NCBI GenBank assembly: GCA_964016885.1 | Contig: CAXHJY010000115.1 | Span: 22,947-86,946, forward strand | Length of the DNA stretch: 64,000 nucleotides | Origin: Eledone cirrhosa | Taxonomy: Eukaryota | Direction: 5' to 3' | Notes under the pieces: generated by a model | The model's database searches: none | Seen by the model: the letters and a program-made list of their open reading frames with translations, nothing else | What the model was told of the DNA's origin: nothing | Translations under genes and position numbers: made by a program | Shown here: positions 6,685-57,828 of the stretch, piece by piece | Position numbering within the stretch: the first letter of the stretch is position 1 | How the letters are laid out: the number at the start of each line of letters is the position of its first letter

Positions 6685-6869
6685 GGAACGAGTAGGAACC
6701 CGACGACTGAGCTCAAGCCGTTTCGACGGCTAATTCAGAATTAGCCGTCGAAACGGCTTGAGCTCAGTCGTCGGGGTCCTACTCGTTCCTATTACCCACT
6801 CTACTACCCTAAGTATTGAGTACTTTGGTGCGTTATGGTCCACCTGGTTCCTTACCACATTTCCTTCGT
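6685..6869. repeat. Near-perfect palindrome (arms 6685-6736 / 6738-6789) containing the 3' half of a hammerhead ribozyme; Penelope pLTR-like remnant in (TA)n
   Basis: Arms are reverse complements; GAAACGGC...GTCGTC forms stem III plus a GUC site; the tail GTATTGAGTAC is shared with the cassettes at 11.3 kb and 40.9 kb. Confidence 0.7.
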
Positions 6870-6889
6870 TATATATATATATATATATA

Positions 6890-9187
6890 TTGTTATACTT
6901 GGGGAGGGTCATATTTGTGTAATATTGCCAGAATTAATAACAGAACACACTCACTGTTTGGTTGGTTTTCGCTTCTCGCTGTCTTTTATATCCGTAATCT
7001 AACTTACTCGGTCCTCAATGTTGCCATTGACTGACCGACGGTCAAAAATAATACAGATACAATATAGACACAAACACATATATATAGTTTATTATAAATC
7101 TTTCGTTGCACATCTGCAACATCGTCAGTGGTGTTATATTTTCCTCCTGTTGTGTTGTATGTCTACGCCATTTTTTATTCAGTCTGTCTATATATTTATT
7201 TATTTATTTGCTTGTTTGTTTATTTTATTTTGTCTTCTTTGCGCATGCGTTTGCGTGTGTGTATAGTGTTATGTTTGCTGTGTGATGGGTGACTAGTGTG
7301 TGTTTATGTGCTTGTTGTTATTGTGCTTGTGTATGTATTTATTTATCTTATTTTATTTACTTATTTATACTTCTCTTAGGTCAGTGTTGTTTGTTTGGGT
7401 GTTGTTGTTATTCCATTCATTCTTTCTGTTTAGTCTTGGTCTTCTAAGTTCTATTTCACTGGCCTCTCTGATTTGCCTATCTGCTGGGTCATTTCTATGT
7501 TTAGATATTATTCTAATTTCTATGTTGTCTATGTTACCGTCATGTTGTTGTCTGGCATGTTCGTATAGTACTGACCCGTTTTTTCGTCCTTTTAGTTCCC
7601 CCCAGTGTTGGTCTATCCTTTCACCTATGCTACGATCTGTCTCACCTATGTATGTTGTTGTCATGTTTCTGCAAGTACCCTCTGTACATCTTATGCTATA
7701 GACTACGTTTCTAGTTTTACAGTTTATCCGGGGGTTCACCTTACATATGATACATTTCCTATTGGTACAGTGGGTTTTCTTAAAAGGGTATGTTTTGCTG
7801 ATCAGGGATTTTATGGTGGTTCCTGGCTTTTCTACCACTTTTATTTTTAAGTGGGTCTTTCTAAGGGCCTTTCTACACTGGTTAGCTAATTTCCCTCCAG
7901 GGGTGGCGTCCACAAACATGACACTCTGGTATCTCTGGTTGTCGTACCATGATGTGGCTTTCCCTATCTTATGTCTAGCCCTATCTAAGCTATTCCATGA
8001 TTTGCTCCTGTATAATGGGCAAATTCCTTTCATGTCCAGTTCTATGAGGGTCTTATACTTTTTCATGACTCCTTTGTATACTCTGACTCTGTCTCTTTGG
8101 TTGTAGCCAGAGAACTGCATGCGGTTGATGAAGTGTTGGATGTCTTTCCATTTCTGTTGGGTCGCACATGCGGGACACATTCTTCATCACTCGTACCAAA
8201 TCTGCGATCAGAATATTAAACTTAGCACTACTGGACATTGCTGAGTTTTTGAGTATCAGGTATTTGGAGGCCATGGGTTTAGCATAGTGTGAGTGGAGAA
8301 TTTGGGCTCTCTCGTCTATAGTGTTAATCCAGAGTTCTGTGTCTAATACAGGTAGTCTATTGTTAGGGTGTTTGGAAGGGAAGTCGATAGTTACAGTTAT
8401 ACTCTGGTGTATGGAATTAGCTATCTGCTGGATGCTTTCCATCGTGCTACGTTCTAAATCAAACTTGTTAGTGCTCTCTAGTGGGGGTGTTCTTATAACT
8501 ATATTGATATCGTCTACATAACGAGAGTACATGATGAGGTCTATGGAGCTTTCATTAAGGAGATCTTTAAGTTTCCTTTCCCACCATACCATGAAAAGGT
8601 TGGCAACATCACCAGCTATGCTGACGCCGATGGCTGCTCCCTCATTTTGGGTGTAGATTTTCTCATTGAACTTAAATGTGGCCCTTTAGGGTAGTTTTGA
8701 TACTAGCCCCTATTGCATGTGTGACCATTTTTCTTACCTGATCATTGTTTTGGGGGGTCCGTATAGCTTTGGTCCACCCAATCCACCTTCCCATGGGAGT
8801 CTTTTTTGCCATTGAGGTTATGGTGGGGGGTCTACCTCTTATAGGTCTACTAGGGCAGAAACATCTAAGGTCATGGCTGTCTAGGTAGTCAGTGTCGTAG
8901 GTAAGTCTAATTAGGAGGCCCAGTTCATCTGTGTCGACGTCGCAGAACTCCACCTCACTCTCAATGATCATCTCCACACATCTTTTCACAGCAAAATCAA
9001 TGTTAATGGATGGGTACAGTGACACCACATCCATGCTGCCTATTATGCAGTTGGATAGGCTCCTGTTTTTGTTGCACTCACTGATTCTGCTGAGGAGGTC
9101 CTCTGTACTTTCACATACATCTGGGGACATCTTGATTATGGGGCGTATAACCATTGAGAGGAAGTAGGAGATCCTGTAGTTGCTAGC
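6890..9187 (-). mobile_element. 5'-truncated, frameshifted Penelope-like element (RT + GIY-YIG) with 3' pseudo-LTR (about 6890-7370)
   Basis: ORF pieces 8672-9190, 8053-8592 (YSRYVDD) and 7365-8180 (VYSIRC..YIGET) are nearly identical to the 54196-57828 ORF; both ends lie in (TA)n. Confidence 0.95.
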
Positions 9188-9222
9188 TATATATATATAT
9201 ATACATATATATATACATATAT

Positions 9223-9255
<33 letters not shown>

Positions 9256-9262
9256 TATATAC

Positions 9263-9297
<35 letters not shown>

Positions 9298-9409
9298 CAT
9301 ATATATACATATATATATATAGCTATTCCTCTCAATGGTTATACGCCCCATAATCAAGATGTCCCCTGATTCTGCTGAGGAGGTCCTCTGTACTGTCACA
9401 TACATCTGG

Positions 9410-9453
<44 letters not shown>

Positions 9454-9562
9454 TCTACTTTTGACTTAATATTGCTCTGGATAATATCTATCGAGCTGAT
9501 TTATTGAGAAGCACATAATTCTACCATATTTAATATGTTACATTTGTGTGTGTGTGTGTATA

Positions 9563-10459
9563 CGAGGTGTGTCAGAAAACTTCCAGGACTGATGTCACAA
9601 AAGATTTATTTCAAACCCAAACTTCACACTAACAGATTTTTCTCCTTCAAAGTAATCCCCCTGGAGTCTAATGCACTTTTCCATCCTTTTCTTCCACGCT
9701 TGCATGCACTCTCGGAAGGATTCTTCCGGGATCCTCAGCAGTTCCGTCGTCACGGCCTTTTTGATGTCGTCCACGTCTTCAAAACGGGTCCCCTCCGGGT
9801 CGTACTCGAAGATCCATAACTCATCACCGGTGATGACTGTCCCTAGCAAGCCTGGTTCGGTTTCAAGACGCTCGAGGATGTCGTGGCACACTTGCATGCG
9901 TCGACCCTTCTGGTCATCGTTCAGCAGTTTTGGCACCACCTTCGCGCAGACTTTCCGCATGTCCAAATCTGCAGTGAGAATCTTCCAGACGCTGTCCCGA
10001 TTCATGCCCAGCTCATTTGCCATCAGTCGAACAGTCAGCCGACGATCGCTACGTACCATCTGCCTGACGCGCTCAACGTTGACCTCAATCCTGGTTGTTG
10101 AGGGCCTTCCGCTCTTGGGGTCATCTTCCACGTCATCGCGTCCTTCTTTAAACCTCTTGCACCACTTAAAAACACGTGACCGTGACATCGTCTCATCTCC
10201 ATACACTTGCTGCTGCAATCCCAGTGCTTCTGACGGAGTTTTCAAATCTGTTCGTTGCTCTGTGCTCATTGCTTGACGATCTGAAACAGAGGACATGTAT
10301 ATAAAATTATGAAGAAAACATTTTGATCGTTGAAGAGAGCTAAGATTACATTTACATACTCCAGGGGGATTACTTTGAAGGAGAAAACTCTTAGTGTGAA
10401 GTTTGGGTTTGAAATAAATCTTTTGTGACATCAGTCCTGCAACTTTTCTGACACACCTC

Positions 10460-10460
<1 letters not shown>
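9563..10460 (-). mobile_element. Internally deleted mariner (Tc1/mariner) transposon with ~100-bp TIRs and TA target duplication
   Basis: TA|CGAGGTGTGTCAGAAAA...TTTTCTGACACACCTCG|TA; transposase has the HTH region (MSRSRVFKWCKRFKEGR, SGRPST, RKVCAKVVPK) and VITGDELW joined directly to GTRFEDVDDIK. Confidence 0.93.
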
Positions 10461-10517
<57 letters not shown>

Positions 10518-10521
<4 letters not shown>

Positions 10522-11167
10522 GAGAGGTATAGAGATTGTTTTAGCAAGAAGCTAACAGCATTCTATAACATATATGCGACTATAACGTCAAGATGGGAAA
10601 AGTAGTTAACGTAAGATTTAGGAAAAATAATTCAAACTCATCTCAAAAGAGAATCAGGATATAAATTCATCCACAGAATTTAGTGAAATCCAGGGAAAAA
10701 TCAATAGACCTTTAACTCATGATAAAATAAAGTTTGAAACACTTATCCTTCAATTTGGAATAACATCAAATGCTCTGTATAGTCTTAAAAGACTATTTCA
10801 TGAAAATTTTCAGTGGAGATGGTCACGGTTGGATTTCATTCATCAGCAGAGCTCAACAGAAAACCCAGGCTCTCACAGTATTATAATCGGAAAAAGGGAT
10901 TTCTAAAACTGGCTAGTTCGCCTTCATGTGTAATTATGAAAAAGCACATGAGGAAAAAACGGGGCTAGTGACGTCAGGATGAAAGTGAATGTTTATTTAC
11001 AAGAAATAGCAGTCAAATACATTCTGAAAAAAACTCTACAAAAGGAGTTCTGCAAATAGCAATAATTATCACAGTTTTTATGAAAATAACCGGGATTAGT
11101 CACAGATAGTTTAAGCACTCTAGGAAAAGAATCCGAGTATAAATATAAATGAGAGGTATAGAGATTG

Positions 11168-11172
<5 letters not shown>
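10518..11172. mobile_element. ~630-bp non-coding cassette between (TA)n tracts with terminal direct redundancy
   Basis: AAATGAGAGGTATAGAGATTGTTTTA occurs at both 10518 and about 11147. Confidence 0.55.
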
Positions 11173-11243
<71 letters not shown>

Positions 11244-11245
11244 TG

Positions 11246-11296
11246 AGATTCTACAGGACTAGAACTGTTTCATTCTTTAGAAATCATCAGGAATCT
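11246..11296 (-). ncRNA. Type I hammerhead ribozyme inside palindrome 11239-11347
   Basis: Minus strand reads AGAUUC-CUGAUGA-UUUCUAAAGAAU-GAA-ACAG-UUCUAGUC-CUGU-A-GAAUCU: stem I 6 bp, stem III 4 bp, GUA cleavage triplet, U-U pair at 10.1/11.1. Confidence 0.8.
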
Positions 11297-11421
11297 GATG
11301 ATTTCTAAAGAATGAAACAGTTCTAGCCCTGTAGAATCTCATCTATATTAAAACTTTTATACTCTGCAATGTATTGAGTACCTTACTTACTGTGGTTACC
11401 TCCGATTCAACCCGGAATAAC

Positions 11422-11580
<159 letters not shown>

Positions 11581-11612
11581 AAAGAATAGAGGTGTAACAC
11601 ACAAGTTATTAT

Positions 11613-11995
11613 ATATTGGTAAACGGAATAGAAAATGCTGACAAATTGTTCACAGTTGAAAAATGGTTTAATTAGGAATAAAAGAGTATTAGTGATTGTA
11701 TGGGTTAGTATTCAGTTGTGGTTTTAAGTTTTTAAGTTTTTACCGGTTGCGCATTTCTAAATGCTTTTCAAAAATAATTTTGAGATAGAGTGTCCGTGCG
11801 GATCAGAGCAAACAGCACGGACACTCTATCTCAAAATTATTTTTGAAAAGCATTTAGAAATGCGCAACCGGTAAAAACTTAAAAACTTAAAACCACAACT
11901 GAATACTAACCCATACAATCACTAATACTCTTTTATTCCTAATTAAACCATTTTTCAACTGTGAACAATTTGTCAGCATTTTCTATTCCGTTTAC

Positions 11996-12003
<8 letters not shown>
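11613..12003. repeat. Apparently perfect inverted repeat with ~185-bp arms and a 15-nt spacer, in a (TA)n-bounded cassette
   Basis: ...GAGATAGAGTGTCCGTGC ggatcagagcaaaca GCACGGACACTCTATCTC...; arms match out to TATTGGTAAACGG / CCGTTTACCAATA. Confidence 0.93.
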
Positions 12004-12082
<79 letters not shown>

Positions 12083-30544: not shown

Positions 30545-31675
30545 TTATATAACAGCAATGTTTTAGTTATATTAGTTAGTTTATAATAAAGGGAAATGAC
30601 ATGTTTGTTTTCAAGGACATGACGTGTTAACTCTCACAACAGAAGCTTAGTTACAGAGTTGCATATACAACCAAGCTTAAGAGTTTATTTCAGGTGTGAA
30701 AATACCACAATAACAAGAAGACAATCATTTCTTCAAGGAAACAAACAGATTGAAGTGAATGTAAGTAATTTTTGTTATTCCTTTTCAAGTAGGCACACAA
30801 AACTTGTAAAAAAGTAATGCATATATTATTTACTCTTTAATAACAGAGGGAAAGGCAATACCAAGGGGTCTTTTCGTAGCCCCTGAGCTGGTGGGAAGGA
30901 GAGGAAGGGGTCCTCAAACTGGTGACCTGATCCGAATGCTTGCAACAAAACGGACTCCACTAAAGTCACCAAAGGGCCAGATGTCAGCTGTACAAGTCCG
31001 AGGAAACGAATAACCAAGGAAAGAAAACTAACTTTCATCATGAACTGATGTGTTTATATGATTTTTAGATGGTCAAGAGAGCTTCTTCTTCTCAAACAAA
31101 AGATCTCAAGTGTCAGATTATGCCTCAATTTACGAATAACTTTGACAGTACTTTATGTATTTTATGGAACGGACTTTGTAGGGATGTTTTCAGTATGATG
31201 TAGACTTGCACTGTCTTATCACCCGCAACAATCTGAATCATATTAACCAATGGCTAGGCCCTTATGTTGTCAAGTATTTTGGGTTCCCTTTAACCACTGA
31301 AGTCCTAAGCCACAGGTAACGGTGCCTTAGCCTCGTCAACCTTATGTATAAAACAACCCTAGCGGAAATGCCATGAGAGTCTTGGCTTACCTCAATCTTT
31401 TTTAGGGGGAAACACCAGCATTCCCTGTTGTTAAGTGTAATTGAGTGTACATACTGTCTCTCATTTTCCTGACTGGTTAATTTATATCGAGTTGTTTATT
31501 TTGTAAATTATATTCATTATATAAATTGTGTTTATATGTTTATTATTAATATCATTATCATCATCAACAACACCATTATCATTTCGTTATATACCATTAA
31601 ATAACACATTTTTTTAAAATGACTTACCTTTAAAATCTCTATTAATATATTATTTTTTATAGACTCTCTAAAGAT
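30545..31675 (+). promoter_or_regulatory. Probable TATA box, non-coding 5' exon (donor at 30761) and intron (acceptor at 31662) of the VWA5A-like gene
   Basis: TATATAA near 30547; GAAT|GTAAGT; TTTTTTATAG| 13 nt upstream of the ATG. Confidence 0.5.
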
Positions 31676-33823
31676 ATGGCAAATGTATCTATATTTGGAA
31701 TCATCTGTGAAAAGAAAACAAATGTTTCTCTTCTTTACGCCAAACACACTGTTTCAATTGATGGATTTAGTGCACATGTTAACATCGAGGCTGAATATAT
31801 AAATGAAAGCCAACACAAGACAGAAGCTAAGTTTGTTTTCCCTGTCGAAGAAGACAGTGCTGTGTATAAATTTGAAGCTAAAATTGGTGATGTTCATTTG
31901 ATTGCCAAATCTAAAGACAAAGATGTTGCCCAGAAGGAGTACAAAGAAGCTGTAGAAAAAGGACAGTCAGCTATTTTGTTGCGTGAAACAAGCACATCTG
32001 GGGATATATTTGAATATAGTTTAGGTAATATCCCACCAAAACAAAAGATCAATCTAAAAATATGCCTCGTTTCTGAACTTTCATGCGAAGTTGATGGAGC
32101 AGTAAAGTTTTATACACCTTTTGTTCTTAATCCCAGGTTTGGTCTTTTACCTAAAGATGAAAATTACCAAAAAGCACCAAAGCCAAAGGAATTTAGTTTC
32201 AATGCCTCAATCAAGTGGAATTCACAAATTAAAGATGTCATATCAATACATCCTATTAAGGTTGAATATCAGGATAATAAGTCTCATGCTACTGTGAGAA
32301 TGACAAAGGAGTTTAATTTTGAGAAAGACATCCTTCTCCATATTTACTATGAAGATGTGAAGAAACCACAAGTGATTCTGGAGAAAGGTGATAGAAATGC
32401 TAAAGGAATGTTTTCTAAAGATATTATGATGATAAATCTATTTCCAAATCTTCCCCAAGTGAACTCTTTACCAGCTAATGACTACATCTTTATTATTGAC
32501 CGGTCTGGAAGCATGAGTGGAGAGAAATTTGAAGCTGCTAAAGATACTTTGTTACTTTTCTTGAAAAGTCTACCCCTGGGGTGCTCCTTTAACATTATAA
32601 CTTTCAATAATTACTTCGAAGTTTTGTTCAAAGATGGAAGCCGAGAATATAATGAAGGTTCTCTGAATGAAGCATTGGAATTCCAGAATAATGTTTACGC
32701 AGCTGGTGGAACTGAAATGTTCAAAGCTATTAAATCCCTCTCTGATAAAAAAACAGCTGACAATATTTATCGCCAAGTATTCCTGATAACTGATGGGGAA
32801 GTCTACAACACACATGAAATAATTCAATTGGTCAAAAAGCAAGCATACAACACTCGGTACTTCACGGTCGGTATTGGATCTGGAGCTTCTACAGAATTAG
32901 TGAAAGGTATTGCTCGAGCCGGGAGAGGTCAAGCAGAGTTTGTGATGGCAAATGATGACCTTAAGGCAAAAGTTATACATTTATTGAAATTGTCAATGCA
33001 GCCATTTGTATCTTCAGTTTGTTTCTCTGCTGAAGTTAGTGACAGCAACAAAAAGTTACCCTTCATTTCAGTTCCAGAAAACATTCCTTGTATTTTCACC
33101 GAAGAAAGATTCATTATTTATCTAGTTTTTCCAGAAATTACGTCTGACTGTCAAAATGTTAAACTGAATCTTTCTGGTAAAATTGGTGAATCAGTATTTT
33201 CACTTGACTTTGAAACTAATTTGTTGAATCAGAGAGACAACGAAATGAAAATACACCGTCTTTGTGTGAGAAAGAAAATACAAGAACTGGAACTAAAAGA
33301 AGATTTAGGGAAAGACAATGGCGTAAAATCTGAGATTATTGATCTAGCTACAACTGCTAACTTGGTTTCAAGGTACACAAGTTTTATTGGGTCGGAGAAA
33401 TCATATTCAGTGAAACCCACGACTCGTGAGACTACATCCAAAAATTTTGATACTGGAAAATTTGGAGAGTTGCATAAATTTGACATAATAAAATTCAACT
33501 TCGAGAGTAAAGACAGACTGAAATCTTTGCTTGTCTTACAAACCTTTTCTGGATACTGGGACCTGAATGAGTTTTTAGCAACCATTTTGAAAGAATCCCT
33601 CGATCAACTTAAGCGGACAAAACCAGCAGTAAACGACAATATCTGGGCTACAGCACTTGCAATTGTTTTCTTCAGAGAAAAATTAACATCACAAAAACAT
33701 GAATGGGAGTTAATTGTTGATAAAGCTGTACGTTGGCTGAAGACTCAGAATACACAAACAATTGGATTTGATCAAATAATGACTGACGCTTCACACGTGT
33801 TGAAAACAAAAGTATACACATAA
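31676..33823 (+). CDS. VWA5A: von Willebrand factor A domain-containing protein 5A-like (VIT + vWA), single coding exon, 715 aa
   Basis: VIT: EAKFVFPVEEDSAVYKFEAKI..AQKEYKEAV..SLGNIPP. vWA MIDAS: FIIDRSGSM, GGTE, LITDG. C-terminus LQTFSGYW..IWATALA..WELIVDKAVRWL; AATAAA overlaps the stop. Confidence 0.9.
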   Translation: MANVSIFGIICEKKTNVSLLYAKHTVSIDGFSAHVNIEAEYINESQHKTEAKFVFPVEEDSAVYKFEAKIGDVHLIAKSKDKDVAQKEYKEAVEKGQSAILLRETSTSGDIFEYSLGNIPPKQKINLKICLVSELSCEVDGAVKFYTPFVLNPRFGLLPKDENYQKAPKPKEFSFNASIKWNSQIKDVISIHPIKVEYQDNKSHATVRMTKEFNFEKDILLHIYYEDVKKPQVILEKGDRNAKGMFSKDIMMINLFPNLPQVNSLPANDYIFIIDRSGSMSGEKFEAAKDTLLLFLKSLPLGCSFNIITFNNYFEVLFKDGSREYNEGSLNEALEFQNNVYAAGGTEMFKAIKSLSDKKTADNIYRQVFLITDGEVYNTHEIIQLVKKQAYNTRYFTVGIGSGASTELVKGIARAGRGQAEFVMANDDLKAKVIHLLKLSMQPFVSSVCFSAEVSDSNKKLPFISVPENIPCIFTEERFIIYLVFPEITSDCQNVKLNLSGKIGESVFSLDFETNLLNQRDNEMKIHRLCVRKKIQELELKEDLGKDNGVKSEIIDLATTANLVSRYTSFIGSEKSYSVKPTTRETTSKNFDTGKFGELHKFDIIKFNFESKDRLKSLLVLQTFSGYWDLNEFLATILKESLDQLKRTKPAVNDNIWATALAIVFFREKLTSQKHEWELIVDKAVRWLKTQNTQTIGFDQIMTDASHVLKTKVYT

Positions 33824-39941: not shown

Positions 39942-40195
39942 ATGTATACCTTCATATAAACCTTAATTATTAAGGTAGCTATTATGTATGTTCATGATGT
40001 TCATGTTTATATACACACTAGCCGTCAACATCTGAAATCCAGTCAACTAATATACAGACGTCATCCGCTCTATTGTTCCAATAGCTAATACACGTGCTAA
40101 TGTTTATAAACATCCTCTCCATTTAGCATCTATACACCGTTTATTTAATATATATATATTTAGTTATGTAATAAACAACATAAGATAATTATTTC

Positions 40196-40277
40196 ATTTA
40201 CCAGTGGTTTCTTGAAAGCAGATATATCTGTTTTCAGTCGTCAGAATATATCTGCTTTCAAGAAACCACTGGTAAAT
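40196..40277. repeat. Short palindrome abutting (TA)n
   Basis: ATTTACCAGTGGTTTCTTGAAAGCAGATATAT ... ATATATCTGCTTTCAAGAAACCACTGGTAAAT. Confidence 0.85.
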
Positions 40278-40325
40278 TATATATATATTTACGTGTATTT
40301 ATATACATATAAATATATATATATT

Positions 40326-40740: not shown

Positions 40741-40879
40741 ATATATAGATAAGTTATTCCGTATTGAATCGGAGGTAACCACAGTAAGTAAGGTACTCAA
40801 TACATAGCAGAGTATAAAAGTTTTAATATAGAAGAGCTTCCACAGGACTAGAACTGTTTCATTCGAGAGAAATCATCAG

Positions 40880-40930
40880 GGTTTCCTGATGATTCCTCCC
40901 GAATGAAACAGTTCAAATCCTGTAGAAGCC
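40880..40930 (+). ncRNA. Type I hammerhead ribozyme inside palindrome 40751-41015
   Basis: GGUUUC-CUGAUGA-UUCCUCCCGAAU-GAA-ACAG-UUCAAAUC-CUGU-A-GAAGCC; same family as 11246-11296 with a different but still paired stem I. Confidence 0.75.
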
Positions 40931-41040
40931 ATTTCTATATAAAATATTTATACTCTGCTATGTATTGAGTACCTTACTTACTGTGGTTACCCTTGATTGA
41001 ACCCAGGATAAACTTATATTATATATATATATATATATAT

Positions 41041-41113: not shown

Positions 41114-42031
41114 GAATTAGTATATCTACCAACATATGTATACAGATGTATACTCATGCTAGCAAATATATATGTTATGTTTTAGTACCTTTGTGGTTCT
41201 ATGCAAGGGGATGCAGAACAATTATATGAAAGACGTAAAATAAGAAAATTTTAAAATTAACTTACTTACTAAAATTTTCACTCCAACTAATTAGTTTCTG
41301 TAAGGGAATAAATATAGTTACGCAACGCAACTATAGAGAAATCATTACGTCATCAGGGAGTCTATTCTCAGCTAAGTTCCCAGGCAATGCGCGGACACTA
41401 AAAAATAATAATTCAGTGGATGGAAAAAAGCAAGCGGGGACTAGATTCCAGGGCACTGAAAAAATTCACTGCCTACTTGGTCAGTGGCAAATTCTAAAGA
41501 ATCAATCACGTGACACTGAGGTTAATCAGTGAGAACAATTATATGAAAGACGTAAAATAAGAAAATTGCTAGCATGAGTATACATCTGTATACATATGTT
41601 GGTAGATATACTAATTCTCTATATTTATCTCCAAATTATTTGTTGAGCAAAACTTGCCGAAATTTACTGCTATGGTTCATGGTAGTAGTTAGGCTCTTGT
41701 CTCATCACACTCCACTCCTCACTGATTAACCTCAGTGTCACGTGATTGATTCTTTAGAATTTGCCACTGACCAAGTAGGCAGTGAATTTTTTCAGTGCCA
41801 TGGAATCTAGTCGCCGCTTGCTTTTTTTCCATCCACTGAATTATTATTTTTATATGGGTTCCTAGTGTCTACGCATTGCCTGGGAACTTAGCTGAGAATA
41901 GACTTCCTGATGACGTAAGGATTTCTCTATAGTTGCGTTGCGTAACTATATTTATTCCCTTACAGAAACTAATTAGTTGGAGTGAAAATTTTAGTAAGTA
42001 AGTTAATTTTAAAATGTTCTTATTTTACGTC

Positions 42032-46612: not shown

Positions 46613-46667
46613 GTGAGGTTTTTTTTACAAAATGAAAAATAACCGAGGTGTCCTACACGAGTGAAAG

Positions 46668-46757
46668 TATAAAGAAAAAAAGATGCAATCGAAAATGCAA
46701 CTGGAGTCTTAAATAAGACTCCAGTTGCATTTTCGATTTCATCTTTTTTTCTTTATA
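46668..46757. repeat. Palindrome in a (TA)n-bounded cassette
   Basis: ATCGAAAATGCAACTGGAGTCTTA aa TAAGACTCCAGTTGCATTTTCGAT. Confidence 0.85.
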
Positions 46758-46790
46758 TTTATATATATATATATATATGTATATAATGAA

Positions 46791-48130: not shown

Positions 48131-48267
48131 TATATTAATAAGAGGAATTCCAACTTTGTCTGATTTACTCGTTTTATTTACAATCCTTTAAAATTTATAA
48201 CGGTATTATAAATTTTAAAGGATTGTAAATAAAACGAGTAAATCAGACAAAGCTGGAATTCCTCTTA

Positions 48268-48275
<8 letters not shown>
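48131..48275. repeat. Near-perfect palindrome (~70-bp arms, 5-nt spacer) in (TA)n
   Basis: ...TTTAAAATTTATAA cggta TTATAAATTTTAAA... Confidence 0.9.
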
Positions 48276-54006: not shown

Positions 54007-54195
54007 TGTAAACTATATATATATGTGTTTGTCTATATTGTATCTGTATTATTTTTGACCGCCGGTCAGTCAATGGCAACATTGAGGACCGAGTAAGTTA
54101 GATCGCAGATATATATATATAAAAGACAGCGAGAAGCGAAAACCAACCAAACAGTGAGTGTGTTCTGTTATTAATTCTGGCAATATTACGCAAAT

Positions 54196-57100
54196 ATGAC
54201 CCTCCCCAAATATAACAATATCTGTTTCGACACACGATTTCATATAAAAAACCTCGCAAAACTAATTCATCGCCGCTATGGCATTAGCTTGTGCCAAGCT
54301 GAAAGGTTATTGAAAGACACTGTTTTCTGTTATATAAAAACTACAATAACAACAGAACAAATCCGCTTCTTAAAACACTGTGTTTCCTCCAAAACATACA
54401 CAACAAACATATCAAAACAAGTAAATAATTTATTATTGAACAAAACACAAGCTGAACGGCTAAAACACACAATAACAGTTAATATGAAAAGAACAACATA
54501 CACAAAAGTCAACGCACTCTACAGACAAAAACGCATCAACGGTAAGGAAATCCGAAATCTCATCACAGCAAACGAGAGAGATGACTTCATGAGCGTCATC
54601 CGACGCGAAACGAAATATGCTCAAAACGAATGCTGTAGGCATTTCAAGAAGAAATTAGAATGGATGAATAAGAAAAAACTACAAGAAAGGAAAATCGAAT
54701 ATTCTCAAAAATACCCAGATAACATCGACAACATCCGTATGAGTGATGTAAAACTACCGGAAGAATTTACCAATGACCACACAGTAAATATCTATGGGAA
54801 CACTTTAATCAGTGAACAAGAACAACAAATCCTAAAGTTACCACCAAAATTTGCCATCTACAAAAAGATTAATCCTATGGAATGCAAAACGGAGCTGGAA
54901 AAGTGTTTCACAAAAATACGTTGGAATGCAAAGGTAAACAACAACAACAATAATAACGGTAGTAGTAATATAAACAATAACTCTGGGTATAGAAATAACA
55001 GCCATAACCATAACAATGGCAGGAAAGTGAGAAATAGTGATAATGGTAATAATACTAGCGATAGACAGAACAACAACAACCACAATAATAATAATAATAG
55101 AAACGTTAACCACAGACACAGCAACAGTGACCACAGTAGTAATAACGGTAACAATACGAACAACAACAACAACAATAACCACAGTGGTAATAATGGAAAT
55201 AGTACATGTAGCAACATCAACAAAAACAAGAAACATAATAATAGTAACAACCACAATGGTAGAAATAGCAGTAACAACAACAACAATAACGGTGAAGTAA
55301 ACAACAATACATCTAGCAATCATAACAATAATAATATTAATGCTAAGGATAGAAACAACAACAACCACCATGATAACAATAATAGCAACACACACAACTA
55401 TGACGATAGAAATAACGACAACCCCTTAGAGAAACTATTTTTCAACCCAGCTGACAAAACATATAAGATGGGTAATATCTATCCTACGAGGTTACCCTTT
55501 AATAAAAGAGTTTGCATACCACAACAAATAGATGACGAGACGGAGGCACAGTTCACCATAGCTAGAAATAAGATTAGACAAGTAGTAGACAGGTACACTA
55601 TGAGACAGAGCAGACCAGAGGCCCAACAACTTGGGATAAAACCTGTAGAAGGCTTGGTTAGCCTCAAGCAGCGCACAAGGGATGGTGAGGTAGTGTGTCT
55701 ACCCACAGATAAGTCTGGTAGGATGTCAATAGATAGCATGCCGAACTACATCGAGGCAATGCAACCCCACATCACCAACACGAGCGAAGTTGCACAACTA
55801 ACACACGATGGGAGAGAAAAAATCCTCAACGCTCACATGATGATGGGGACTGACATCCTAAAGCCAAGCAGACGCACTGCCAACAACTTCCAGGCGTCTA
55901 ACAATGGCATACCACCCTTGTATGGGCTCCGCAAAGACCACAAGACTGTCGACGACCCGACAATAGGACCACCAACAAGACCTGTATGCGGAGCTAATAT
56001 AGCTAGCAACTACAGGATCTCCTACTTCCTCTCAATGGTTATACGCCCCATAATCAAGATGTCCCCAGATGTATGTGAAAGTACAGAGGACCTCCTCAGC
56101 AGAATCAGTGAGTGCAACAAAAACAGGAGCCTATCCAACTGCATAATAGGCAGCATGGATGTGGTGTCACTGTACCCATCCATTAACATTGATTTTGCTG
56201 TGAAAAGATGTGTGGAGATGATCATTGAGAGTGAGGTGGAGTTCTGCGACGTCGACACAGACGAACTGGGCCTCCTACTTAGACTTACCTACGACACTGA
56301 CTACCTAGACAGCCATGACCTTAGATGTTTCTGCCCTAGTAGACCTATAAGAGGTAGACCCCCCACCATAACCTCAATGGCTAAAAAGACTCCCATAGGA
56401 AGGTGGATTGGGTGGACCAAAGCTATACGGACCCCCCAAAACACTGATCAGGTAAGAAAAATGGTCGCACATGCAATAGGGGCTAGTATCAAAACTACCC
56501 TAAAGGGCCACATATTTAAGTTCAATGAGAAAATCTACACCCAAAATGAGGGAGCAGCCATCGGCGTCAGCATAGCTGGCGATGTTGCCAACCTTTTCAT
56601 GGTATGGTGGGAAAGGAGACTTAAAGATCTCCTTAATGAAAGCTCCATAGACCTCATCATGTACTCTCGTTATGTAGACGATATCAATATAGTTATAAGA
56701 ACACCCCCACTAGAGAGCACTAACAAGTTTGATTTAGAACGTAGCACGATGGAAAGCATCCAGCAGATAGCTATTTCCATACACCAGAGTATAACTGTAA
56801 CTATAGACTTCCCTTCCAAACACCCTAACAATAGACTACCTGTATTAGACACAGAACTCTGGATCAACACTATAGACGAGAGAGCCCAAATTCTCCACTC
56901 ACACTATGCTAAACCCATGGCCTCCAAATACCTGATACTCAAAAACTCAGCAATGTCCAGTAGTGCTAAGTTTAATATTCTGATCGCAGATTTGGTACGA
57001 GTGATGAAGAATGTGTCCAGCATGTGCGACCCAACAGAAATGGAAGGACACATCCAACACTTCATCAACCGCATGCAGTTCTCTGGCTACAACCAAAGAG

Positions 57101-57828
57101 ACAGAGTCAGAGTATACGAAGGAGCCATGGAAAAGTATAAGACCCTCATAGAACTGGACATGAAAGGAATTTGCCCACTATACAGGAGCAAATCATGGAA
57201 TAACTTAGATAGGGCTAGACATAAGATAGGGAAGGCCACATCATGGTACGACAACCAGAGATATCAGAGTGTCATGTTTGTGGACGCCACCCCTGGAGGG
57301 AAATTAGCTAACCAGTGTAGAAAGGCCCTGAGAAAGACCCACTTAAAAATAAAGGTGGTAGAAAAGCCAGGAACCACCATAAAATCCCTGATCAGCAAAA
57401 CCTACCCTTTTAAGAAAACCCACTGTACCAATAGGAAATGTATCATATGTAAGGTGAACCCCCGGATAAACTGTAAAACTAGAAACGTAGTCTATAGCAT
57501 AAGATGTACAGAGGGTACTTGCAGAAACACGACAACAACATACATAGGTGAGACAGCTCGTAGCATAGGTGAAAGGATAGACCAACACTGGGGGGAACTA
57601 AAAGGACGAAAAAACGGGTCAGTACTATACGAACATGCTAGACAACATCATGACGGTAACATAGACAACATAGAAATTAGAATAATATCTAAACATAGGA
57701 ATGACCCAGCAGATAGGCAAATCAGAGAGGCCAGTGAAATAGAAATTAGAAGACCAAAGCTAAACAGAAAGAATGAGTGGAACAACAACAACACCCAAAC
57801 AAACAACACTGACCTAAGAGAAGTATAA
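54196..57828 (+). CDS. Penelope-like polyprotein: RT + GIY-YIG endonuclease, with an Asn-rich insert, 1210 aa
   Basis: PTDKSG, PPLYGLRKDHK..PTRPVC, SMDVVSLYPSI, GAAIG, YSRYVDD, LPVLD; VVYSIRC..C..YIGET..RI..H..R..EA..I..LN; no stops. Confidence 0.95.
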   Translation: MTLPKYNNICFDTRFHIKNLAKLIHRRYGISLCQAERLLKDTVFCYIKTTITTEQIRFLKHCVSSKTYTTNISKQVNNLLLNKTQAERLKHTITVNMKRTTYTKVNALYRQKRINGKEIRNLITANERDDFMSVIRRETKYAQNECCRHFKKKLEWMNKKKLQERKIEYSQKYPDNIDNIRMSDVKLPEEFTNDHTVNIYGNTLISEQEQQILKLPPKFAIYKKINPMECKTELEKCFTKIRWNAKVNNNNNNNGSSNINNNSGYRNNSHNHNNGRKVRNSDNGNNTSDRQNNNNHNNNNNRNVNHRHSNSDHSSNNGNNTNNNNNNNHSGNNGNSTCSNINKNKKHNNSNNHNGRNSSNNNNNNGEVNNNTSSNHNNNNINAKDRNNNNHHDNNNSNTHNYDDRNNDNPLEKLFFNPADKTYKMGNIYPTRLPFNKRVCIPQQIDDETEAQFTIARNKIRQVVDRYTMRQSRPEAQQLGIKPVEGLVSLKQRTRDGEVVCLPTDKSGRMSIDSMPNYIEAMQPHITNTSEVAQLTHDGREKILNAHMMMGTDILKPSRRTANNFQASNNGIPPLYGLRKDHKTVDDPTIGPPTRPVCGANIASNYRISYFLSMVIRPIIKMSPDVCESTEDLLSRISECNKNRSLSNCIIGSMDVVSLYPSINIDFAVKRCVEMIIESEVEFCDVDTDELGLLLRLTYDTDYLDSHDLRCFCPSRPIRGRPPTITSMAKKTPIGRWIGWTKAIRTPQNTDQVRKMVAHAIGASIKTTLKGHIFKFNEKIYTQNEGAAIGVSIAGDVANLFMVWWERRLKDLLNESSIDLIMYSRYVDDINIVIRTPPLESTNKFDLERSTMESIQQIAISIHQSITVTIDFPSKHPNNRLPVLDTELWINTIDERAQILHSHYAKPMASKYLILKNSAMSSSAKFNILIADLVRVMKNVSSMCDPTEMEGHIQHFINRMQFSGYNQRDRVRVYEGAMEKYKTLIELDMKGICPLYRSKSWNNLDRARHKIGKATSWYDNQRYQSVMFVDATPGGKLANQCRKALRKTHLKIKVVEKPGTTIKSLISKTYPFKKTHCTNRKCIICKVNPRINCKTRNVVYSIRCTEGTCRNTTTTYIGETARSIGERIDQHWGELKGRKNGSVLYEHARQHHDGNIDNIEIRIISKHRNDPADRQIREASEIEIRRPKLNRKNEWNNNNTQTNNTDLREV

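Follow-up and report, generated by a model that had tools for sequence, protein, structure and literature searches.

The palindromic, hammerhead-bearing cassette set in (TA)n within the window, the whole stretch of 64,000 nucleotides of Eledone cirrhosa DNA that was analysed, is on sequence grounds almost certainly a short mirror-joined pLTR stub of an autonomous Hydra-clade Penelope-like element (PLE) and not an element of its own. With respect to its origin, it is very probably a 5'-truncated head-to-head inverted insertion of the hammerhead pLTR of such an element, likely derived from an RNA that was copied twice with the cDNAs joined in (TA)n. As a sequence, the cassette is an unremarkable remnant from a known retrotransposon clade, and its worth is mechanistic. 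The stubs halt by the thousands at the first base of the ribozyme, which is likely the mark of the start of the element RNA. The origin of the inverted structures of PLEs and the role of their hammerheads have been stated as open questions (PMC8557442, PMC11167929). A young family with intact ORFs and with thousands of short junctions that mark two RT starts and the probable 5' end of the RNA makes this question directly testable.

An earlier note on this DNA had described a palindrome with 52-bp arms in (TA)n, a full type I hammerhead on the minus strand and a plus arm without the 5' strand of stem I, and this description holds. The arms at 11239-11290 and 11295-11346 are 52 bp long (54 bp with the shared TA), enclose a 4-nt loop, differ by a single mismatch (11258/11327) and fold with a z-score of about -19, with (TA)n flanking the cassette on both sides. 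A-to-I editing as the source of the arm mismatch was considered and found unneeded; the query itself had selected that variant. Past the palindrome, the plus arm is unpaired up to 11423 (69-bp tail), so that the unit is asymmetric. On the minus strand, 11246-11296 contains every part of a type I hammerhead, namely a 6-bp stem I, CUGAUGA, a U·U followed by a 3-bp stem II, GAAA, a 4-bp stem III and a GUA site. This site is the one match of a strict descriptor in the window, compared to none in 100 shuffles of the microsatellite-masked window. A search of the cassette against Rfam gave nothing at gathering level; with an E-value threshold, Hammerhead_HH9 was matched weakly, below its gathering threshold (14.1 bits, E 5.7), and the other matches were to generic miRNA hairpins. 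With C3 of the hammerhead counted as +1 of the pLTR, the features are the following.

11173-11241, no strand: left (TA)n target, repeat sequence
11239-11296, minus strand: inverted short arm, pLTR -6 to about +52, its short 3' end passing into (TA)n; agrees at 57/58 positions with the 5' pLTR of intact element L156
11246-11296, minus strand: full type I hammerhead motif, cleavage predicted between 11252 and 11251, loop III with the palindrome CUAG
11291-11296, no strand: head-to-head junction, 4-nt loop plus 2-nt microhomology (11295-11296) common to both arms
11295-11423, plus strand: direct tailed arm, pLTR +1 to +129, without the 5' strand of stem I; 126/129 identical to L156
11355-11423, plus strand: PLE 'tail', +61 to +129, between two preferred 3' ends; leads to the ORF (ATG at +176) in intact copies
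11423-11576, no strand: right (TA)n target, repeat sequence
40751-41014, no strand: second, more diverged palindromic copy with both arms tailed and a complete hammerhead at 40880-40930 (plus strand)

The arms of the second copy at 40751-41014 appear to belong to two different subfamilies.

The 129-bp plus arm has near-identical copies genome-wide (686 candidates, 40 scored), and a 28-mer of the tail has 15,048 exact genomic matches (control 0), which agrees with the large family that had been postulated. Equally, the suspected Penelope link has been substantiated by L156, an intact RT/GIY-YIG element that carries the cassette sequence. L156 spans 6,032 bp with TA on both flanks and consists of a pLTR, a 713-aa RT/GIY-YIG ORF with its ATG at +176, a 3' UTR in which microsatellite takes up about 3 kb, and then a TATA box and another hammerhead that ends at +60; the two pLTRs, each with a hammerhead, are 73/73 identical to each other. 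The junction from the tail to the ORF has 118 genomic matches, so copies attached to a Penelope ORF do exist and an assembly chimera at L156 is unlikely; among the first 90 tail matches on contig C1, two continue beyond the tail into the ORF. Most of 40 examined tail-to-ORF loci possess a long upstream pLTR including the TATA box, the usual partial-tandem form of PLEs, and the insertion structure of PLEs with a partial tandem pLTR, an inverted 5'-truncated copy and a tail on one end is found in this family. The family is young, as all 150 scored EN matches are 97-100% identical, 15 of them with the same open frame of 758-759 codons. Two other assignments were rejected. A presumptive 580-bp non-autonomous element is a part of the coding element that comprises the 3' UTR and the pLTR and is cut off at the microsatellite, and the PLE ORF in the window (54175-57828) is no partner of the cassette, with termini unlike those of the cassette and an insignificant protein similarity to the partner ORF (best E 0.066).

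The single 713-aa ORF with an RT plus a GIY-YIG domain at its C-terminus contains YRDD and IVY...YIG motifs, gave a GIY-YIG match below the cut-off (E 0.012) and no RT match in Pfam, and has 1,404 full-length relatives, with two members of one relatives' cluster being Sanderia malayensis gene models. By eye, the N-terminal motif DKT of the L156 protein is exact and RWR is a conservative variant of RWK; the CxCX5C linker, CxxC and CxH are all present, CCHH is absent as the second His is missing, and two Cys stand 8 residues apart in the EN loop. The protein can be aligned by eye with printed Hydra sequences (Craig et al., 2021, PMC8557442), and the putative placement in the Hydra clade rests on this alignment together with the protein motifs. 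As in the Hydra-clade PLEs of the same source (Hydra-1_Obim, Penelope-1 to -18_HM; PMC8557442), a single ORF of roughly 700 aa with a C-terminal GIY-YIG domain, DKT, the CxCX5C linker, CxxC and CxH, insertion in (TA)n and a type I hammerhead in the pLTR are observed. On the other hand, the family described here has RWR and not RWK, a loop III of 8 nt compared to 1-3 nt, and a length of 6 kb with a microsatellite-filled 3' UTR compared to under 3 kb; 'generally under 3 kb' is a descriptive rather than a strict trait, and the 6,032 bp of L156 result from the microsatellite in its 3' UTR. The supplement also includes the octopus family Hydra-1_Obim of Octopus bimaculoides, from which the present family is distinct, as the two differ in their hammerhead sequence and share about 60% protein identity (by eye, best block; PMC8557442). 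The literature consulted contained no description of the PLE family of the cassette or of a transcription start at stem I, with Repbase and most subscription journals outside the scope of that search.

Several characteristics of the cassette have already been published as Hydra or PLE traits, namely (TA)n targeting, inverted truncated copies, an optional tail and the U·U pair at 10.1/11.1. Insertion in (TA)n occurs in nearly all Hydra families, and for Penelope-13_HM an inverted 5'-truncated copy is noted (Craig et al., 2021, PMC8557442 and its supplement). The U·U had been considered a novel ribozyme variant; however, a U that follows A9 and faces a U preceding G12 is present in 14 of the 25 published Hydra families (PMC8557442 supplement) and is thus a clade trait. 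The same U·U is located at the base of helix II in the axolotl retrozyme HHR_Amex2, for which cleavage amounts to 22% per hour in the monomer and is more efficient in the dimer (PMC7229834; bioRxiv 10.64898/2026.07.22.740005).

The shape of the stubs was assessed in a census of the first 90 matches of the tail 28-mer on contig C1, which after dropping one duplicate comprises 89 copies, unselected for shape, from one 36-Mb stretch and with an exact 28-mer match required. Thirteen copies are long and 76 short, and 60 are palindromic. Behind the tail, 78 of the 89 copies have a TA or CA repeat, and TA is present at the left end in 56 of the 60 palindromes, as would be expected from the proposed (TA)n targeting. 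In 44 of the 76 short copies, the start of the tailed arm falls between -7 and +4, and neither arm extends beyond -7, that is at most one base past the 5' end of stem I, in 59/60 palindromes, with this 5' limit less well tested in 15/60 because the best reference is itself short; the palindrome centres consequently cluster at the core. Inverted arms terminate at +53 to +62 in 56/60 and tailed arms near +129, which gives two preferred 3' ends at +54/+60 and +129, and +60 is also the 3' end of a non-inverted full-length copy (L156). The junction sequences vary from copy to copy, so the palindrome is rebuilt at each insertion, and some junction types recur. A complete hammerhead motif is retained on at least one arm in 25/60 palindromes and on none in 35/60. 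Extrapolation of these data leads to roughly 10,000 stubs in the genome.

Core and stems of the ribozyme are conserved, and loop II varies freely. In an alignment of 35 hammerheads, 94% of the cells are paired. The covariation proposed as a check is found in stem I, where two pairs have changed on both sides between subfamilies (15 cells compared to 5.1 shuffled, a measure inflated by related sequences, with eight rows being arms chosen for a paired stem I), and double-sided changes in stems II and III are absent from these 35 rows. The active hammerhead fold is predicted to be marginal, with -4.2 kcal/mol compared to -7.6 kcal/mol for the minimum-energy fold of the window motif alone (11246-11296) and -5.3 compared to -5.6 kcal/mol for the L156 motif, for which P(stem I) is 0.01 with the tail included. 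In the stem III region of the main subfamily, the self-duplex reaches -12.8 kcal/mol and the hairpin -1.4 kcal/mol; in the sole copy of the second subfamily tested, which is mutated, the self-duplex has -6.4 kcal/mol. These values predict a ribozyme that is weak as a monomer and needs dimerisation via the palindromic stem III or the help of a protein. When the window palindrome is read through, P(stem I) drops to 0.0, and the ribozyme is predicted to be buried in a hairpin of -86 kcal/mol. The suggestion that the palindrome can both self-cleave and form a long hairpin has therefore not stood up, as folding predicts that the palindrome blocks self-cleavage rather than allowing it. Given this burial and the complete motif in 25 of 60 stubs, cleavage of an isolated 51-mer would be little informative for the window locus.

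From the wider interpretation in the earlier note, the PLE link, TA targeting and the large family are retained, and the novel ribozyme variant and the self-standing element are not. The latter would be a non-autonomous fold-back or retrozyme-like element that is transcribed, cleaves itself and moves as a palindrome. Although the high copy number, the recurring junction types and the complete motif in 25/60 palindromes can be seen in this light, the junctions are heterogeneous and differ among copies, a promoter is missing from the stub, burial of the ribozyme is predicted, 35/60 palindromes have no complete motif, and the window copy is not tandem and matches the pLTR of a coding element. In place of the fixed internal structure and symmetric termini of fold-back or MITE-like elements, varying junctions and unequal arms are found, and head-to-tail tandem units, a trait of retrozymes, are missing at the window locus. 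Non-LTR retrozymes (PMC7229834; bioRxiv 10.64898/2026.07.22.740005) equally have a type I hammerhead, are non-coding and PLE-derived, but are organized in head-to-tail tandem repeats that make circular RNA, whereas the window copy is single and head-to-head. A self-standing element is thus largely refuted and appears highly improbable.

The stub of a coding PLE, on the other hand, can be explained by a sequence of steps which, taken as a full mechanism with RNA start, two internal RT starts and head-to-head cDNA joining, we regard as somewhat better than evenly supported. A TATA promoter would start the RNA at the first base of stem I, so that the ribozyme forms the RNA 5' end and would be mostly uncleaved when the RNA is copied. 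The protein of the element would nick both target strands, reverse transcription would begin internally at +129 and at +60, and both cDNAs, covering the first 60-130 bases of the RNA, would run off the RNA 5' end and anneal head-to-head by short microhomologies in the (TA)n site. Priming on the 5' pLTR would give rise to stubs, and priming on the 3' pLTR to long and full-length copies. A stub without promoter is likely a dead end.

Elements of such a mechanism have been reported in other PLEs. For the Anolis element Poseidon PAc (Frangieh et al., 2024, PMC11167929), it has been described that reverse transcription starts at two internal sites, that both strands are nicked, that the ribozyme is assisted by protein and that the RNA used as substrate is uncleaved. 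As in the family described here, two ends or RT starts bracket a tail just downstream of the hammerhead, the targets are AT-rich and uncleaved RNA serves as the template, which for the present family is inferred; Poseidon PAc belongs, however, to another clade, its tail measures 30-40 bp compared to about 69 bp, and its ORF starts inside the ribozyme and not after the tail (PMC11167929). Penelope elements of Adineta vaga (Arkhipova et al., 2013, PMC3846280) share the head-to-head inverted pLTR with one shorter arm, the optional tail, a TATA-like box in the pLTR and junction palindromes, but these are few copies interpreted by a self-priming model, compared to the extrapolated roughly 10,000 stubs with a sharp 5' limit found here.

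Self-priming is the main rival to the joining of two cDNAs also in the present family. The same element would be involved, and the mirror arm would arise by a single cDNA, or an antisense template, that folds back at its 3' end and serves as its own template, as proposed for the rotifer PLE palindromes (PMC3846280). Loop II is the same in both arms of 26/26 palindromes (0.25 expected with independent draw of the arms), so both arms derive from one source locus or molecule; this concordance fits a single template with fold-back as well as two RNAs of one locus. Some junctions continue along the partner strand of stem I in a snap-back-like manner. However, in 27/60 palindromes the 5' reach of the short arm exceeds that of the tailed arm by more than 3 nt (the reverse in 12/60, within 3 nt in 21/60), which fold-back of a tailed cDNA cannot produce, the +60 end occurs also without inversion in a full-length copy, and the copy at 40751-41014 appears to join arms of two subfamilies. 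For these reasons, two target-primed cDNAs joined by microhomology fit best, and a single snap-back is considered unlikely.

That the RNA likely starts at the ribozyme is concluded from the combination of the 5' limit of the arms, a TATA box 29-30 nt upstream and a frequent non-genomic G. Among 70 distinct hammerheads with the TATA box sequence TATAAATA upstream, its distance from the stem I start is 29-30 nt in 56. In a hand tally of the first 100 listed matches in which stem I is preceded by a base other than the genomic C, this base is G in 75, with about 24 of these 75 ambiguous, as they are explicable by the partner arm or a one-base snap-back onto the partner of stem I, and with 7 of the 25 non-G cases being mutated long copies. 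With other RTs, the addition of a G opposite a cap is a known phenomenon. Taken together, these sequence patterns point to a capped RNA that likely starts at the first base of stem I. Such a TATA box resembles the TATA-like box in the rotifer pLTR (PMC3846280) and differs from the TATA-less internal promoter of Penelope of D. virilis.

Alternatively, the 5' limit might not be a transcription start but a splice acceptor, or reflect RT arrest at the folded ribozyme. A splice-acceptor-like CAG stands directly before the 5' limit in the three subfamilies with upstream sequence, and helix I is where an intron ends in D. virilis (PMC4209133). Yet the AG itself is often contained within the arms, and no constant upstream exon was found joined on in the census junctions. 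As for arrest, structure-induced RT stops are expected on the 3' side of a helix, and long cDNAs traverse the same ribozyme in the 3' pLTR, as reflected by 4,907 exact genomic matches of a 28-mer that combines upstream sequence and core. Splicing or arrest is thus given only a small chance, and a transcription start at stem I is preferred. Beyond this start, it is conceivable, but put forward only tentatively, that the ribozyme at the first base of the mRNA acts as a 5' handle whose stem III pairs two transcripts and that a dimeric RT/endonuclease makes the two cDNAs simultaneously. If true, the roughly 10,000 stubs would document, base by base and within the genome, the PLE insertion reaction, which is as yet unsolved.

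Tandem arrangements of the same pLTR are found elsewhere in the genome. On contig C1 (83679806-83691724), a head-to-tail array of units of about 1.08 kb is located behind the 3' UTR of an element, with each unit composed of hammerhead, tail, microsatellite, 3' UTR and TATA, and with 12 hammerheads spaced 1,027-1,113 bp. This retrozyme-like array is consistent with an origin of retrozymes from pLTRs, as has been proposed. The 28-mer of upstream sequence and core has 3,368 forward and 1,539 reverse genomic matches, a strand skew suggesting a much larger tandem array elsewhere in the genome. At contig C4 (279229130-279229950), short tandem units link the ORF start back to a point immediately preceding stem I, which hints at template jumping at the 5' end of the RNA.

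The window harbours further elements. Adjoining the cassette, 10519-11172 (minus strand) belongs to a separate young family with a unit of roughly 620 bp, a terminal direct repeat of 35 bp and, at 10772-10852, a type I hammerhead of canonical form with a long stem II and a 7-bp stem III; with 1,607 candidates, partial tandems at 2/10 loci and a spacing of about 630 bp at two more sites, this unit fits a non-LTR retrozyme better than the cassette does. A different PLE at 54175-57828 (plus strand) has an open frame of 1,217 codons with RT, GIY-YIG and an Asn-rich insert, as well as pLTRs and a 5' piece in inverted orientation, and a truncated second copy of it is located at 6887-9370 (minus strand). 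The TA-embedded palindrome at 6685-6868, with 52-bp arms and half a hammerhead-like fold, is probably a stub of a related family, as its tail and the tail of the cassette have an 11-bp motif in common. A third family is represented by an inverted pair of hammerheads with long stem II and short palindromic stem III at 41280-41361 (minus strand) and 41902-41983 (plus strand). More palindromes beside (TA)n, with arms up to 190 bp (11610-12004, 40147-40325, 46665-46760 and 48131-48275), are probably stubs of other PLE families. Furthermore, an internally deleted element with terminal inverted repeats of about 109 bp at 9559-10464 is, by eye, presumably Tc1/mariner-like, and an intronless ORF of 725 codons at 31646-33823 is taken, on the same basis, to be a VIT/vWA protein look-alike.
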